Shown here in pieces: positions 19,746 to 28,348 of a stretch of DNA of 64,000 nucleotides (the stretch's first letter is position 1; each line of letters opens with the position of its first letter). Origin of the DNA: a virus (Duplodnaviria > Caudoviricetes); IMG/VR virus record IMGVR_UViG_3300017716_001697, positions 192,001-256,000 of that record; one strand, written 5' to 3'. The notes under the pieces were generated by a model. That model saw nothing but the letters and a program-made list of their open reading frames with translations. It searched no databases and had not been told where the DNA came from. The position numbers were made by a program, and so were the translations under genes.

Positions 19746-19820
19746 CTGGCGTTAGTACAATGGATAGTACAGGGGATTTCTACTCCCTAGATAGGGGTTC
19801 GATTCCTCTACGCCGGACCA
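19746..19820 (+). tRNA. trnR: tRNA-Arg(UCU)
   Basis: Full cloverleaf: acceptor CTGGCGT/ACGCCGG, anticodon loop TT-TCT-AC, T-loop TTCGATT, encoded CCA. Confidence 0.95.
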
Positions 19821-20574: not shown

Positions 20575-20745
20575 ATGATTTGTCCGAAATGTGATACACT
20601 GATGGGTGCAATGGGGTATGGTGATGAACGGTGTCCTGCTTGTGGACACACATCATATTCTGAATCTGATGAAGAATTTAATCTTCGCATATACGGTACA
20701 ACATTCCGTGAAGGCGAAGATATTGACACTGAACAAAGAGAATAA
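20575..20745 (+). CDS. Small Zn-ribbon protein (56 aa, absent from ORF track)
   Basis: MICPKC...RCPACG; stop 1 nt before the rtcB ATG. Confidence 0.7.
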   Translation: MICPKCDTLMGAMGYGDERCPACGHTSYSESDEEFNLRIYGTTFREGEDIDTEQRE

Positions 20746-20746
20746 T

Positions 20747-21940
20747 ATGGAAATCGAAAATGTAAAAATGTGGGTAGGTGATATGGAAGTAGAGCAAGCA
20801 GCTCTATCCCAAATCCTAAACATTTCCCAACTACCTATCCTTGCTGGACACATGGCTATCATGCCAGACGTACACATGGGTAAAGGTGCCACTGTGGGTT
20901 CTGTTATCCCTACACGTTCTGCAATTATTCCTGCGGCTGTGGGTGTGGATATCGGCTGTGGTATGATTGCAGCAATGACCAACCTTACTGCCGATGATCT
21001 TCCTGACTCATTGTTTTCGTTGCGTAATGCAATTGAAAAGGTAGTACCTGTAGGATTCAACGAACACGCAAAGGGCATCCCTTCTGTATCGGGACCTTAC
21101 GCAGATATCCTGCGCAAGAATTTGCACAAGACAATGGATCAATGGGATCACTTGGCAATGAAGCAGCACCTTGGTCGTGCTGACGAAAAGCGCATTGCTC
21201 GCCAAATCGGTACGCTAGGTGGTGGTAACCACTTTATCGAAATCTGTCTCGATACATCTAACCGTGTGTGGATTATGTTACACAGTGGTTCACGCGGTAT
21301 CGGCAATCAAATCGGCACTGTTGCAATCGAAATGGCTAAAGAACAGGCTGCTAAACGTGCATGGGGTCTCCCTGATGCTGATCTTGCATGGCTGGACGAA
21401 GGCACAACCGAATTCGATGCATACATTGAGGCAATGCATTGGGCACAGGACTATGCAAAATTCAACCGCGATACAATGCTGAATTTGGTTATTTCTGCAA
21501 TGAAGGTAAAGTTTCCTACAATGAAGATTGTTGGCGAAGTTGTAAACTGCCACCATAATTTTACAAGCGTGGAAGAGCACTTCAATGAAAAGATCTGGGT
21601 GACACGTAAGGGTGCAGTTTCTGCGCAGTATGGGCAAATGGGTATTATTCCCGGCTCAATGGGTGCAAAGTCATTCATTGTTCGCGGTAAAGGTAATCCT
21701 GATTCCTACTGCTCGTGTTCGCATGGTGCTGGTCGTAAGATGAGCCGCAACCAAGCTAAGAAGTTGTTCACATCACTTGATCTAGAACAACAAACAGCCG
21801 GTGTTGAGTGCCGTAAGGATGCAGACGTAGTTGATGAAATTCCGGGTGCATATAAGGATATTGATCAGGTAATGGCAGCGCAGGCTGATTTGGTTGATAT
21901 TGTACACACGTTGAAGCAAGTTCTTTGTATTAAGGGGTAA
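20747..21940 (+). CDS. rtcB: RtcB RNA ligase (joins 3'-P or 2',3'-cyclic-P to 5'-OH)
   Basis: PDVHMGKG, VGVDIGCG, GTLGGGNHFIE, HSGSRG, HHNF, RKGA, PGSMG, SHGAGR, YKDI motifs. Confidence 0.97.
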   Translation: MEIENVKMWVGDMEVEQAALSQILNISQLPILAGHMAIMPDVHMGKGATVGSVIPTRSAIIPAAVGVDIGCGMIAAMTNLTADDLPDSLFSLRNAIEKVVPVGFNEHAKGIPSVSGPYADILRKNLHKTMDQWDHLAMKQHLGRADEKRIARQIGTLGGGNHFIEICLDTSNRVWIMLHSGSRGIGNQIGTVAIEMAKEQAAKRAWGLPDADLAWLDEGTTEFDAYIEAMHWAQDYAKFNRDTMLNLVISAMKVKFPTMKIVGEVVNCHHNFTSVEEHFNEKIWVTRKGAVSAQYGQMGIIPGSMGAKSFIVRGKGNPDSYCSCSHGAGRKMSRNQAKKLFTSLDLEQQTAGVECRKDADVVDEIPGAYKDIDQVMAAQADLVDIVHTLKQVLCIKG

Positions 21941-21942
21941 TC

Positions 21943-22995
21943 ATGGGATCATGGAACGGAACATGTGCAGTATCTAACCTGCACGTACGAAGCGGGCAAG
22001 AGGTAGCAGTATTCATGCTGCTCGAAAACAAAAGATCAAAATCCTTCTGTTATGGTAATGCATTGTACGATGTATGCCCGTTACCATTCTATGGCAAGTA
22101 TAATGATTACGGTGCAGTAGAAGACTGCCAAGGCCCGGTGTTGCCCATTGTGGTTGACGAAATCAAGCGCCAGCTGTACGAATTTGGCCAAGGCCCGAAC
22201 AGTAGCCACGACATGGTAGTACGCAGGGCCGATTTTGACATTGATCTGTTATTTGAAGCCGACCACGAAGATCGTCTCGGTATTCAATATACACCCTTCT
22301 TCGACGAAGATGATTATGATCTTCGCGAATTGCGTAAAGACGGTGAAAAAGATCAACTTACACCAGATCAGCAATTCGAGCTTGACAGACTAGCCAACAA
22401 ACTCAAACAGGTAGATACATTTAGACGTGTTACACACGTAATTATTCATGGTGATATTTTCCGTGATATCATGAATAAATATTACATCGATGAATATGTT
22501 GGTGACAGCAAAGGTACAACAGGTTATGGAAATAACTATAACCGTGTATTCTTTAAGGATATTCTTGCATCTATTCCTGCATACATCGATGCCTGCAAGT
22601 CTGAAGCGGCAAGAATTAATGCTATGACTGACCCGCATGAACAATGGGCAGAACGAAACATTCCTAAGGATGAATGGAAGAATCCTAATCTTGCAGCAAG
22701 ATGGCTAAACAGCTTCAGTAATAGCAGCGAAGGATTCGGGCTTCTTCGTGTCGACGAATACATTCGCGAATATAAGAATGACGGCCGGTGGGACGAGCTG
22801 ACAGACTTTGTTACAGAAGCGTTAAAGGGTGCATGGGTAAATAGATATATGTCATCCATCCGTAAGCTGTGGTCGAAGCAGACAGGTGCCGGCTCTCAGA
22901 ATGATGAACATGATGGATACAATATCCTGATCCAATCAATGACAGACGTATTGGCGGCCGAGAAGAAGGCGTGGGATGACGAGAACGGGGAGTAG
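21943..22995 (+). CDS. Hypothetical phage protein
   Basis: 350 aa, MGSWNGTCAVSNL..., coupled to rtcB. Confidence 0.8.
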   Translation: MGSWNGTCAVSNLHVRSGQEVAVFMLLENKRSKSFCYGNALYDVCPLPFYGKYNDYGAVEDCQGPVLPIVVDEIKRQLYEFGQGPNSSHDMVVRRADFDIDLLFEADHEDRLGIQYTPFFDEDDYDLRELRKDGEKDQLTPDQQFELDRLANKLKQVDTFRRVTHVIIHGDIFRDIMNKYYIDEYVGDSKGTTGYGNNYNRVFFKDILASIPAYIDACKSEAARINAMTDPHEQWAERNIPKDEWKNPNLAARWLNSFSNSSEGFGLLRVDEYIREYKNDGRWDELTDFVTEALKGAWVNRYMSSIRKLWSKQTGAGSQNDEHDGYNILIQSMTDVLAAEKKAWDDENGE

Positions 22996-25663: not shown

Positions 25664-26290
25664 ATGATATGCGAATACGGATGTAATGGGGAGGCCAATC
25701 ATCAATTACTAAACGGTAAATGGTGTTGCAGTAAACGGCCCGCTGGTTGCAAGGTGCTAAAGGCAGTTAACTCGGCAGGTCTGAAGAAAGCGCATAGTGA
25801 GGGTAGGGGCGGATATATTTACAAAGATCTATCTGACGAAACCAAAGCCCGAATGAATTGGGCTAAGGGTAAGACTATTACACCCGATAGCGAAATATTT
25901 ACAGAAAATAGCACATACTCTAACGAGATGGTTAAACATAGAATTGTTAAAGGTGATCTATTAGAATACAAATGCTCTAATCCGAAATGTGGAATAACCG
26001 AATGGTGCGACGAATCTATTGTGTTAGATTTGGATCATATAAATGGTAACAACACAGATAACAGATTATCTAATTTACGATACTTATGCCCAAATTGCCA
26101 TTCTCAGACAGACACATACAAGGGCAGAAATAAGAATACAGGTAAGTTGAAAGTAACCGACACTGAATTGTTGGCAGCATATAAGGAATGCAATAATATT
26201 AGGCAAGCATTAATCAGCGTAGGAATTGCTGCAAAGGGTGGCAATTATGAAAGATTAAAAAAATTAATTAGCAAAACGCTTGCCCTATAG
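25664..26290 (+). CDS. Free-standing HNH homing endonuclease
   Basis: LDLDHINGNNTDNRLSNLRYLCPNCHSQT; N-terminal CEYGC..WCC Zn motif; C-terminal HTH-like tail; late box GATAAATA and RBS AGGAG. Confidence 0.9.
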   Translation: MICEYGCNGEANHQLLNGKWCCSKRPAGCKVLKAVNSAGLKKAHSEGRGGYIYKDLSDETKARMNWAKGKTITPDSEIFTENSTYSNEMVKHRIVKGDLLEYKCSNPKCGITEWCDESIVLDLDHINGNNTDNRLSNLRYLCPNCHSQTDTYKGRNKNTGKLKVTDTELLAAYKECNNIRQALISVGIAAKGGNYERLKKLISKTLAL

Positions 26291-26308
26291 CTAAATATGT
26301 TGTATAAT
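26280..26308 (+). promoter_or_regulatory. Promoter for the tRNA/ncRNA array
   Basis: TTGCCC-N17-TATAAT with an internal TAAATA. Confidence 0.6.
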
Positions 26309-26358
26309 TAATGCATAGCAGCTGATTACAGTAGCTTGTAGAGATCATTAATAAATTA

Positions 26359-26648
26359 GCGGGTATGGAGAAATTGGTAAACTCACCAGACTTAGAGAAA
26401 TAAAATTTGAGTGCCCGGTCGGAAACGATCGGAGTAGAACCTGTCAAATTCGGCGAACACTTTAACATGTCAACGCCGAGCGAAGCCCGAAAGGGAACGT
26501 GTAGAGACTTGACGGCAGGTACCTAACGCAGAAATGCTACGGTAAAGACAAAGTCCAGACTATCAAACCGAGAGGGTAGCGAAAGCTATAGTAGTAAGAA
26601 AATCTGGCGCCGCAAGGCTTGACGGTTCAAGTCCGTCTACCCGCACCA
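26359..26648 (+). tRNA. trnL: tRNA-Leu(UAA) interrupted by a group I intron
   Basis: Exons 26359..26393 and 26599..26648 join into GCGGGTA/TACCCGC acceptor, CCAGA-CTTAAAA-TCTGG anticodon arm, long variable arm and ACCA. Confidence 0.93.
26394..26598 (+). mobile_element. Group I intron (IC3-like, 205 nt, no ORF)
   Basis: P1 ACTT/GAGT with U-G at the splice site; P AAATTCGGCGAA, Q AACGCCGAGCGAAG, R GTGTAGAGACT, S AAGACAAAGTCC; terminal G. Confidence 0.92.
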
Positions 26649-26746
26649 TATTAGGATACATTGTGCAGACGCGGTAGCTAGCCCAAAAGGGACTTTACTA
26701 GCGACAATGGTGAATGCAGGTACAACAGTGTATCCCAATATGGTGC
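26643..26746 (+). ncRNA. Array element E1 (long closing stem, branched interior)
   Basis: GCACCATATT-A-GGATACATTGT / ACAGTGTATCC-C-AATATGGTGC. Confidence 0.75.
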
Positions 26747-26927
26747 CATATTAAAACGCATAAATGCATTAGTTGCATTGGTAATCTGAATGACGTGGAT
26801 AGCTGCATCTTACCCACTGTCAAACAGAGGACATTGCAGGTGATAGCAAATGTAATGGTTTACAGCTAGGCGATTAGAGTCTGGTAGGTGGGTTCAACTC
26901 CTGCTAATGCGGTTTAACATGGCACCA
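26744..26927 (+). ncRNA. Array element E2 (long stem enclosing a tRNA-like domain, ends in CCA)
   Basis: TGCCATATTAAAACGCAT / ATGCGGTTTAACATGGCA; internal T-arm GTGGG-TTCAACT-CCTGC. Confidence 0.7.
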
Positions 26928-27017
26928 TATCGAAGTACATTAACTGAGTACAAGGCTCAGCGTGCGAATTTTAGTAACTAAGCCTCAAGAGGAAGCTATA
27001 GTGTACTTCGATATGGT
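26924..27017 (+). ncRNA. Array element E3
   Basis: Perfect 16-bp stem ACCATATCGAAGTACA/TGTACTTCGATATGGT with three small internal hairpins. Confidence 0.8.
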
Positions 27018-27065
27018 ATAATGTAGACGTATATTGTAACATACACGGAAGGTAATTGGTCCGTG

Positions 27066-27189
27066 AAACTCGACTGTGGTGTAATGGTAGCACTCAAAAG
27101 TTCCTGGTTCGAATCCAGGCCCGCAATAACCAAAGGGGGTTCGGCACAACGAGTAGGAGAGATGGTTCGATTCCGTCCGAATAGAGTTT
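27066..27189 (+). ncRNA. Element E4: D-arm plus two T-arms, no anticodon arm
   Basis: GTGT-AATGGTA-GCAC; CCTGG-TTCGAAT-CCAGG; GATGG-TTCGATT-CCGTC; closed by AAACTC/GAGTTT. Confidence 0.6.
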
Positions 27190-27190
27190 G

Positions 27191-27269
27191 CATATTAGAG
27201 GGCATTATGCTTCTATTTAAAAAGGGAGCCTGTGCTGGCACATTGGCACATCTAATGTCCTCTAATATG
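27191..27269 (+). ncRNA. Array element E5
   Basis: 17-bp stem CATATTAGAGGGCATTA/TAATGTCCTCTAATATG. Confidence 0.8.
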
Positions 27270-27423
27270 ATGCAGGTAGGCAAATGTGGTAAAGCCGCCG
27301 GTTCGGTCCGGTGAGAGATATGTTGAAGTCTTACATGATGACGGGTAGCTGGGTCGACACAGTCCGTACAGTGGCAGGAGCGATATATTTCGTTTATGGG
27401 TTCGATTCCCATCTTGTATCCCA
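27269..27423 (+). ncRNA. tRNA-His-like RNA with 84-nt variable region and 6-nt anticodon loop
   Basis: G-1:C73 pair, acceptor ATGCAGG/CTTGTAT, D-arm GGC/GCC, T-arm ATGGG-TTCGATT-CCCAT, CCA end. Confidence 0.7.
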
Positions 27424-27428
27424 GAATA

Positions 27429-27628
27429 GCCAGGGTAGCTCAGTCAGGCACGAAACTTAAAGGGAAGATGTTGCAACATTCAACGGAGAGAAGTAATGAC
27501 TTAGGAAGGTTAAGTAGTAAGCATCTTATGATACGCGGTGTAAGGTGTGTAGGTGATAGCCAACTATTAAGTAGAGCAACCAGTATCTAACTGGAAGGTC
27601 GTTGGTTCAATTCCATCCGCTGGCACCA
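27429..27628 (+). ncRNA. tRNA-like RNA with a ~120-nt structured D-loop insertion
   Basis: Acceptor GCCAGGG/CGCTGGC, D-stem GCTC/GAGC enclosing 132 nt, anticodon arm CCAG-TATCTAA-CTGG, T-loop TTCAATT, ACCA. Confidence 0.75.
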
Positions 27629-27634
27629 AATTAT

Positions 27635-27749
27635 GCGATGATAGCTTCAGGTTGGTAGAGCGCGTCATTGAATGCCCTATTTATTCTACGTTATGGTATA
27701 TAGGCGAGTGGTCAGGACGAGGTCGCAGGTTCAACGCCTGCTCATTGTA
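27635..27749 (+). ncRNA. tRNA-Phe(GAA)-like RNA with ~40 extra nt in the anticodon loop
   Basis: Acceptor GCGATGA/TCATTGT, D-arm GCTT/GAGC, CGTCA-TT-GAA...GGACG, T-arm GCAGG-TTCAACG-CCTGC. Confidence 0.72.
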
Positions 27750-27753
27750 TAAG

Positions 27754-27861
27754 CCATATGAGAATACACTGTGGAGAGCACTGCGTATGACTGGGAAGGT
27801 TTGAACCCGACTCACATCGTCACTCGGTATCCTGCGGCCGCAACAGTGTATTCCCATATGG
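27754..27861 (+). ncRNA. Array element E7 (paralog of E1)
   Basis: CCATATG-A-GAATACACTGT / ACAGTGTATTC-C-CATATGG; compensatory changes relative to E1. Confidence 0.8.
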
Positions 27862-28185
27862 TACGAAGGGTAGAAGATGATATCAAAGGCTATTTCCTTT
27901 TTTGATAGACGAAACGCTGTGGCCACGGTGTTAGACTACTTATTGGTTAACCATTGTACCGCCAGATTCCGAAGCCTGTAATCAGGCCTGCCAAACAGTA
28001 AATTGGAGTGTGGGAGGACGCACTTAAAACCATCTCCCGCAGGGTCACCATGTGTTATGAGCGGTGATAGTTTAGCGAACCGGAGTCCTAAAAACCGGAA
28101 GGGTAAAGCAAACTTACCTACAAGTAGCGAAAGGTCTGCTATAGCAGTCAAGCCATCCTAGTCTGGAAAACTAGGGTGCATTTAT
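27862..28185 (+). ncRNA. Unassigned multi-hairpin RNA ending in a terminator-like stem
   Basis: Stems TATCAAA/TTTGATA, GCCTG/CAGGC, GAGTGTG/CGCACTT, TCACC/GGTGA, GGGTAA/TTACCT, CATCCTAG/CTAGGGTG. Confidence 0.45.
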
Positions 28186-28348
28186 TTTAGAAAGATATCC
28201 ATATGTACACTTATGCATGGACCATATTTGGTTATTACGGTGGACCTACTATGACAACAAATTATCAACAACACTGTTCGTGGTACACTGTTGACGATTT
28301 TGGTGATCTCGTACCTGCCACATACAAAATGGATTATTTGGAGACAAC

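Follow-up and report, generated by a model that had tools for sequence, protein, structure and literature searches.

YrlA, a Y RNA found in bacteria and phages, joins a tRNA-like module to a second module, is a partner of Ro60/Rsr, and is recognised by RNase P, TruB, DusA and the CCA-adding enzyme (PMC4201824). Lak megaphages carry 'enigmatic' tRNA introns that were placed with the eukaryote settings of tRNAscan, and one of these inserts may itself encode a tRNA (PMC6784885). Here we describe a 200-nt tRNA-like element with a large insert in its D-loop, located at positions 27429-27628 on the plus strand of a 64,000-nt stretch of phage DNA. This stretch, the window (W), corresponds to bases 192001-256000 of IMG/VR record IMGVR_UViG_3300017716_001697, a complete phage record of 364,576 bp that has repeats at its termini. 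Positions given without a further code refer to the window; G and L codes denote the genomes and loci examined and X codes denote sequencing runs. Among systems known to work, the YrlA Y RNAs come closest to the element but differ from it in topology; the Lak introns are the nearest published observation.

The element is similar to YrlA in combining a tRNA-like module with a second module and in occurring in phages, in genomes with RtcB and putative Ro60-type genes. The tRNA-like D and T arms and the acceptor helix that characterise YrlA are all present. YrlA, however, ends in a Ro-binding stem that replaces the anticodon arm and its acceptor stem is a closed hairpin, whereas the element ends at a normal acceptor with CCA, has a complete anticodon arm, and holds its extra module in the D-loop. 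The Ro60 (TROVE) gene lies within ~4 kb of YrlA on the same strand, while Ro60-type genes lie 15-170 kb from members of the D-loop-insert family. No Rfam Y-RNA match was obtained for the element, and the motif GNCGAAN0-1G, which in YrlA lies near the 5' end, was sought by eye and occurs exactly only in the G003 and L217 inserts, at about the chance level, and not in the insert of the window. The Lak introns and the D-loop inserts both lie in tRNA genes of huge phages, are short, fit no known intron class and are nearly identical between samples (PMC6784885). They differ in that the element is interrupted at D-loop position 20 and has an aberrant tRNA body; splicing is putative in both cases. 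The eukaryote settings of tRNAscan seek introns beside the anticodon.

Interruption of the D-arm region has a precedent in non-canonical bulge-helix-bulge (BHB) introns, known from archaea (Thermoproteales) and from the nuclear tRNAs of some algae. The sites of these introns include the D-loop and, as with the element, their removal restores a cloverleaf. These introns are usually 11-60 nt long and are defined by a BHB that is cut by EndA, whereas the inserts described here are 105-128 nt long, show no BHB and belong to a bacterial-type phage without EndA. A group I intron is a ribozyme of at least 200 nt in the anticodon loop, and one interrupts tRNA-Leu(UAA) at 26359-26648 (RF00028, 53 bits), in the same RNA island 1 kb upstream of the element. 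The D-loop insert is likewise an insert in a phage tRNA of this island, but RF00028 gave no match at E<=10 in 27420-27640, while the positive control at 26339-26574 scored 53 bits; an earlier, sequence-only reading of this DNA had likewise noted the absence of group I motifs. The tRNA cluster of phage T4 encodes species 1 and 2, stable RNAs with no known function, and these, like engineered 'tRNA scaffold' RNAs, resemble the element in that foreign RNA is carried or flanked by a tRNA structure that gives processing and stability. Engineered scaffolds replace the anticodon arm. We are aware of no natural RNA that bears such a domain at D-loop position 20, and literature searches for D-loop inserts in phage tRNAs returned no description of one. 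We class the element family as a probable tRNA-like non-coding RNA that is not a member of any curated family.

A cloverleaf interrupted in the D-loop

The element forms a full cloverleaf whose CCA is encoded, its family is present in at least eight lineages, and its insert is joined to its 3' body in RNA libraries. Over 200 nt it has stems of 7, 4, 5 and 5 bp, the conserved G18 G19 and T loop, and an insert of ~125 nt between G19 and A21 of the D-loop. The 5' strand of the acceptor stem, GCCAGGG (27429-27435), pairs with CGCTGGC (27618-27624) except at G6.G67 and covaries over nine sequences. After a TA linker, read from the sequence, the D stem pairs GCTC (27438-27441) with GAGC (27574-27577); G003 has CCTC/GAGG at this stem, a compensatory change. 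The 5' part of the D-loop, AGTCAGG (27442-27448), retains G18 G19, and AG(N)GG precedes the insert in all members. The insert at D-loop position 20 spans ~124 nt (27449-27572, with a boundary uncertain by 1-2 nt) and is followed by A21 at 27573. The anticodon arm (27579-27595) has a 4-bp stem CCAG/CTGG, an A27.A43 mismatch and the loop TATCTAA, with A33 and the anticodon TCT. The variable loop AGGTC leads into the T arm (27601-27617; GTTGG/TTCAATT/CCATC), which has a U50.U64 mismatch and covaries across lineages, and the element closes with a discriminator A and encoded CCA at 27625-27628. The strands of the D stem thus enclose 132 nt, compared with ~7-11 nt in a canonical D-loop.

The sequence-only reading had described this DNA as a tRNA with a folded domain in its D-loop, and that architecture is borne out by the cloverleaf read directly, by the tRNA call obtained once the insert is removed, and by the seven other lineages. 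Its account of the D stem around 132 nt, the TCT anticodon, A33 and the ACCA end also agrees with the sequence. The description of the rest as a near-normal tRNA holds for the full cloverleaf but not for the pairing, as one mismatch lies in each of the acceptor, anticodon and T stems. The intact element is not called by ARAGORN or Rfam at default settings (best RF00005 score 14.5 bits against a threshold of 29). Following in silico removal of the insert, ARAGORN calls the window element as tRNA-Arg(tct).

The insert of the window is predicted to fold as a three-way junction closed by ACTTAA (27455-27460) and TTAAGT (27567-27572), a helix found in both the minimum-energy and alifold folds. Inside it lie a long irregular hairpin, AAGATGTT ... 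AAGCATCTT (27465-27527), with an AAGT/ACTT tip at 27491-27502; a predicted hairpin with G.U pairs (27531-27550), in which the changes at 27541 and 27545 fall in or beside the loop; and a small hairpin GGT-GATA-GCC (27552-27561), in which G27559>A in X15 and X16 converts U.G to U-A. Three helices named in the sequence-only reading, ACTTAA/TTAAGT, AAGATG/CATCTT and AAGT/ACTT, are present and all belong to the minimum-energy fold. A fourth, ATAG/CTAT, is disfavoured, since it shares T27567 with TTAAGT and is broken by G27559>A in two RNA runs, a change that fits the rival GGT/GCC pairing (27552-54/27559-61). Neither the element as a whole (z = -0.5) nor its insert (z = -0.6 to -1.2) was more stable than shuffled sequence. 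The 'folded domain' of that reading thus stands, in the window, on helices seen by eye and not on energy or covariation; ACTTAA/TTAAGT never varies and so has no covariation support.

As a set, the inserts fold better than shuffles. The z-scores were -7.4 for G070, -2.9 for L224, -2.8 for L219 and -2.7 for L223, and between -1.2 and +1.2 for W, G059, L217 and G003, with a mean of the set near -2.1. Most of the well-folded inserts have a 5' hairpin followed by a long irregular hairpin. Inserts of different lineages could not be aligned (pairwise z 1.2-2.1; the MAFFT alignment was uninformative), and their sharing of exact k-mers equals that of shuffles. Four of the eight inserts contain the motif CGA(A)GUAG, which resembles the GGUCCGA/GNCGAA strand contacted by Ro60 in Y RNAs. 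As it was chosen post hoc and is marginal after correction (P ~0.08 by our own estimate), we treat this motif as a lead only. A by-eye likeness to the GTPase-associated centre of 23S rRNA was rejected, scoring 17 against a shuffle mean of 18.5.

The family was sought with a covariance model, R1, run over the whole records of related phages, and then with degenerate pattern scans. Members beyond the window come from seven lineages: G003 (189 nt), G059 (188 nt; first found by pattern scan), G070 (182 nt; model R1), and L217, L219, L223 and L224, which were added by degenerate patterns built from the earlier members. All members share one layout, in which the first strand of the D stem leads into AG(N)GG and the insert (105-128 nt), and (U)A then precedes the second strand of the D stem. 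Pairing is kept in 167 of 189 stem cells when nine sequences are compared, and 13 of the 21 pairs have changed on both sides, which indicates that the cloverleaf is under selection. Removal of the insert in silico gave an ARAGORN tRNA call in all five sequences tested. The anticodon stem has four pairs, 27.43 being always N.A and unpaired in all nine sequences, and the loop consensus is U-R/U-U-N-U-A-A; the search patterns preset the loop frame T.T.TAA and one of them preset A43, leaving positions 33 and 35 free. Position 33 is A in five of the eight lineages, G in one and U in two, compared with U33 in 109 of 113 canonical tRNAs of G000, G003 and G059. The anticodon varies across lineages between UCU, UUU and UAU, and W, G059 and L223 have a flaw in the T stem or the acceptor stem. 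Some members are without a usable 3' end, CCA being absent from L223 and L224.

Scans for inserts of 135-165 nt gave no member, only tandem tRNAs and chance matches, and for inserts of 75-105 nt there was no true member among the matches listed, which were of the same two kinds. In bacterial and archaeal genomes no true member was present among the at least 120 matches listed; these were a chance upstream CTCAG or duplicated 5' tRNA fragments. In several Lactobacillales-type genomes (L420, L428, L436, L446 and L450) the opening ~20 nt of a tRNA (Thr or Arg) are duplicated ~120 nt upstream of the complete gene. Such fragments, which mimic a D-loop insert in pattern scans, are probably integration-site remnants. 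No insert-free allele was found, and the 77-nt matches in ligase-anchored relatives were ordinary tRNAs. The 80 RtcB-anchored IMG/VR loci gave no blastn or nhmmer homologue of the element, two exact-pattern scans of IMG/VR gave no match, and a search of phage GenBank matched only the group I intron and parts of tRNA-Leu. The only candidate from a pattern scan of JGI metagenomes, L081, proved to be a chance match inside a coding region.

Close relatives were reached through a spurious open frame that overlies the element. This search returned nothing more distant than a pair of ENA contigs, L082 and L083, in which the three-gene array recurs at ~95% identity. The insert is ~97% identical in both contigs, its changes being confined to predicted loops or junctions, and their T stem pairs fully (GTTGG/CCAAC). 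L082, L083 and runs X16, X20 and X17 all keep the anticodon loop TATCTAA. In the DNA run X17 the element lies on a 699-nt contig that extends into the neighbouring genes, with one change in the ~125 nt of the insert, nine in the 55-nt 3' body and ~20 in the next gene. The insert change, A27491>T, disrupts the first pair of the AAGT/ACTT tip.

A word-index search found parts of the 200-nt element in 24 runs of 19 studies, six recorded as RNA. Metatranscriptomes that contain the element are X15, X16, X20 and X21. Four runs were compared with the region, the metatranscriptomes X15, X16 and X20 and the DNA run X17; stretches of 26290-28340 that the RNA runs leave uncovered were given no weight. 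The metatranscriptome contigs, 164-181 nt long with 2-7 differences each, cover 27436-27571 (X15), 27446-27615 (X16) and 27462-27615 (X20). Those of X16 and X20, from two studies, have at least 31 nt on either side of the junction between insert and 3' exon and run 42 nt into the 3' body. No joint that skips the insert was present in the contigs of the four runs.

Permanent domain, intron, released cargo or relic

We favour, with moderate confidence, the reading that the element encodes a stable tRNA-derived non-coding RNA of ~200 nt that retains a lineage-specific domain at the tRNA elbow. The element would be transcribed together with the neighbouring tRNA and tRNA-like genes of its island, and would then be cut out of the longer transcript by ordinary tRNA end-processing. 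Retention of G18 G19 and the T loop leads us to expect that the body folds into the L shape, and a structured domain of ~125 nt would project from the elbow at D-loop position 20. This position points outward at the tRNA elbow, so that a large domain could be tolerated there, and the domain should clash with the elbow contacts of the ribosome. The element probably does not decode, given the loss of U33, the drifting anticodon, the elbow domain at a ribosome contact and the normal tRNA-Arg(UCU) in three genomes. Most likely the RNA would work as a tRNA-shaped adaptor or decoy, its tRNA half bound by a tRNA-binding factor and its domain offering a second binding surface.

A Ro60-type protein is one candidate partner. 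G059 and G089 encode TROVE proteins, with genes 15 and 56 kb from the element. PF05731 (TROVE) has no match in G000, which carries a gene for a DUF2828/DUF7788 protein ~167 kb from the element; proteins of this type, assigned to PHROG 850 'RNA-binding protein', are encoded in G000, G003 and G001. Neither TROVE nor DUF7788 is encoded by four complete genomes without a member, G002, G007, G008 and G058. With DUF7788 counted in, a Ro60-type gene is found in four of four well-covered member genomes versus one of five complete non-member genomes (our own Fisher test, ~0.04-0.07). The likeness of DUF2828/DUF7788 to Ro60 is putative, with only weak sequence matches in the PDB, to armadillo repeats, and a single-sequence AlphaFold model that was unusable (pLDDT 36). 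We regard the association, with genes 15-170 kb from the element, as weak and only suggestive.

Several observations weigh against a stable RNA with a permanent domain. The insert of the window itself is not more stable than its shuffles, and the failure of inserts to align between lineages leaves a common domain without support from a shared fold or from covariation. With their normal UUUCUAA anticodon loops, G003 and G059 could work as tRNAs if the insert were removed. The metatranscriptome contigs show presence, not the ends or abundance of an RNA, and an RNA library can contain DNA or precursors. The absence of a spliced form in them also means little, because a spliced, modified tRNA of 77 nt would hardly assemble.

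The sequence-only reading had posed a choice between an intron removed by a nuclease together with the phage RtcB and a permanent added domain. The evidence leans to the latter, through the RNA contigs, the loss of U33, the drift of the anticodon and the normal tRNA-Arg, and the RtcB-dependent intron is poorly supported, the link to RtcB failing on co-occurrence. We consider it unlikely that the insert is a protein-spliced intron at the D-loop, removed by an endonuclease and an RNA ligase (phage or host RtcB, or another) to give a tRNA of ~77 nt. Splicing would join ...AGTCAGG to TAGAGC..., that is, ...GCTCAGTCAGG joined to TAGAGCAACCAG.... Consistent with an intron, removal of the insert restores a tRNA that ARAGORN can call in all lineages tested, the exons of G003 rebuild the D-loop AGUGGAUA next to a normal anticodon loop (as in G059), and the insertion site is identical in all members, often with TA on both flanks. 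An RtcB RNA ligase gene (20606-21940, plus strand; Pfam PF01139, E 1e-127) lies 5.5 kb upstream of the element, and unexplained, highly conserved introns are on record for the tRNAs of Lak megaphages (PMC6784885). Contrary to this, the complete member genomes G059 and G089 have no RtcB, and several relatives that carry RtcB have no element, among them G001 and G002, complete genomes of the RtcB-anchored set without any D-loop-insert family member. The complete phage genome has no match to EndA (PF01974). The scan for BHB geometry, proposed earlier as a check, found none at the W junctions: a 3-4-3 scan of W gave two loose motifs only, both internal to the insert and no commoner than in shuffles, the junctions of G059 likewise showed none beyond shuffles, and G003 has weak ones that could form only by disrupting the D stem. 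A spliced product would be without U33 in six of eight lineages, with a drifting anticodon and stem mismatches, and the contigs of the four runs and the search for insert-free alleles gave no trace of a spliced joint or an uninterrupted gene. The window phage has a canonical tRNA-Arg(UCU) at 19746-19820 (plus strand), and a normal one is present in all three of the genomes with tRNA sets listed (G000, G003 and G059), so the insert-bearing copy is not needed to read AGA. A variant of this explanation, in which bacterial viruses have a new class of tRNA intron in the D-loop, without ribozyme or BHB and removed by an unknown endonuclease-ligase pair independent of the phage RtcB, appears to us more doubtful again; were it true, the A33 loops would be deliberate, protecting the spliced tRNA from anticodon nucleases of the host.

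It is very unlikely, in our estimate, that the tRNA body is a processing and stability cassette from which the insert is afterwards released as an active small RNA. The insert is indeed the best-conserved part in the closest relatives, four of the inserts form strong independent hairpins, and the island holds many modules in which a conserved stem carries variable cargo. Against release, RNA-library contigs from two studies continue from the insert 42 nt into the 3' body, no conserved cleavage motif or ribozyme is present (Rfam gave nothing at E<=10), and compensatory change maintains the whole cloverleaf together with its anticodon arm, for which a mere cassette would have no need. Least probable of all is a decaying tRNA duplicate with an insertion, functionless and kept by chance. 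Decay would account for the stem mismatches, A33, the redundancy with the normal tRNA-Arg(UCU) and a window insert that folds no better than shuffles. It sits poorly with the same architecture in at least eight divergent lineages and compensation in 13 of 21 stem pairs, with an insert length that stays at 105-128 nt with none at 135-165 nt, with the retention of G18 G19, the T loop and the encoded CCA, and with an element that is near-identical in samples of many studies, RNA libraries included.

The RNA island and other tRNA-like genes

The D-loop-insert element lies in a gene-free RNA island of ~2 kb (26290-28340) that contains the intron-split tRNA-Leu(UAA), several CCATAT...ATATGG hairpin modules and at least three aberrant tRNA-like genes. 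The island is present in its entirety in one run only, a freshwater metagenome from which this DNA may derive. ARAGORN finds 45 ordinary tRNA genes in the phage genome, and ~50 T-loop motifs, all on the plus strand, mark many additional tRNA-like elements; no RNase P RNA (RF00010) was found in the phage at E<=1. The gene adjoining the element at 27634-27750 resembles tRNA-Phe (GAA) and carries an insert of ~40 nt behind the anticodon. The T stem of this gene is GCAGG/CCTGC in the window and GTGGG/CCCAC in L082 and L083, a double compensatory change indicating that it is also a selected structured RNA. On the other side, at the 27427/27429 border, the DNA run X17 contains a relative with 186 extra letters placed exactly between a His-like tRNA-like gene and the element; gain and loss of modules in the RNA array occur at gene borders. 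A 157-nt contig of X15 covers 27978-28093 with seven differences, so that an RNA library appears to include another RNA of the island besides the element.

The CCATAT...ATATGG modules at 26640-26746, 26920-27017 and 27750-27861 start at the CCA end of the preceding tRNA (e.g. ...GCACCATATTAGG), and the 3' end of that tRNA therefore overlaps the 5' strand of the module. These modules recur in G003:C1:179100-180510 with different interiors. The L219 member of the D-loop-insert family (approximately 2391-2610) has no CCA end and is enclosed by a 14-bp flank helix (AGGAGGGTTCTTTGT ... ACAAAGAATCCTCC); this gives the impression of a stem module that carries an entire tRNA-like RNA as its cargo.

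Other unusual tRNA-like genes were encountered in the related genomes. Adjoining or near members of the D-loop-insert family, the genes at L197:1690-1769, L205:1501-1625 and L207:1501-1691 have the anticodon arm replaced by a GC-rich hairpin (CCGGCGCGCCGG) or by a domain of at least 46 nt. A second tRNA-like family of ~139 nt was found in related jumbo phages at L090:1501-1640 (minus strand), L091:1501-1638 (minus), L097:1501-1639 (plus) and G005:C1:97427-97565 (minus). Its D-loop is without GG and has a ~60-nt insert with a conserved GGCGCCGCCGGC, its T loop is an odd 11 nt (TTTGA.GTGTT), its anticodon loops are variable, and each copy lies between two protein genes behind a promoter-like TATAGT/TATACT. 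ARAGORN tRNAs with the amber-reading anticodon CTA, labelled Pyl, occur at G000:C1:33705-33780 and G059:C1:277432-277506. Directly after rtcB, a gene at 21943-22995 encodes 350 residues with no Pfam match, the first 120 of which match PHROG 5960 (function unknown).

Implications for phage tRNA-like RNAs

Reuse of the tRNA fold is shown by tmRNA, YrlA and viral tRNA-like ends, and the tRNA elbow is contacted by the ribosome, RNase P and T-box RNAs. To our knowledge, the extra module of known tRNA-like RNAs replaces the anticodon arm or extends the ends. The jumbo-phage family places a lineage-specific domain of 105-128 nt at the elbow, with the cloverleaf kept by compensatory change and U33 given up. 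As standard tRNA finders miss such genes, phage tRNA counts and lists of 'tRNA introns' need care. Should the insert be spliced, D-loop introns would for the first time be known from beyond the archaea and eukaryotes. A stable RNA with its domain in place, as the RNA-library contigs suggest, would be a natural 'tRNA scaffold' at a new site and might serve phages as a decoy or adaptor against host defences that target tRNA.

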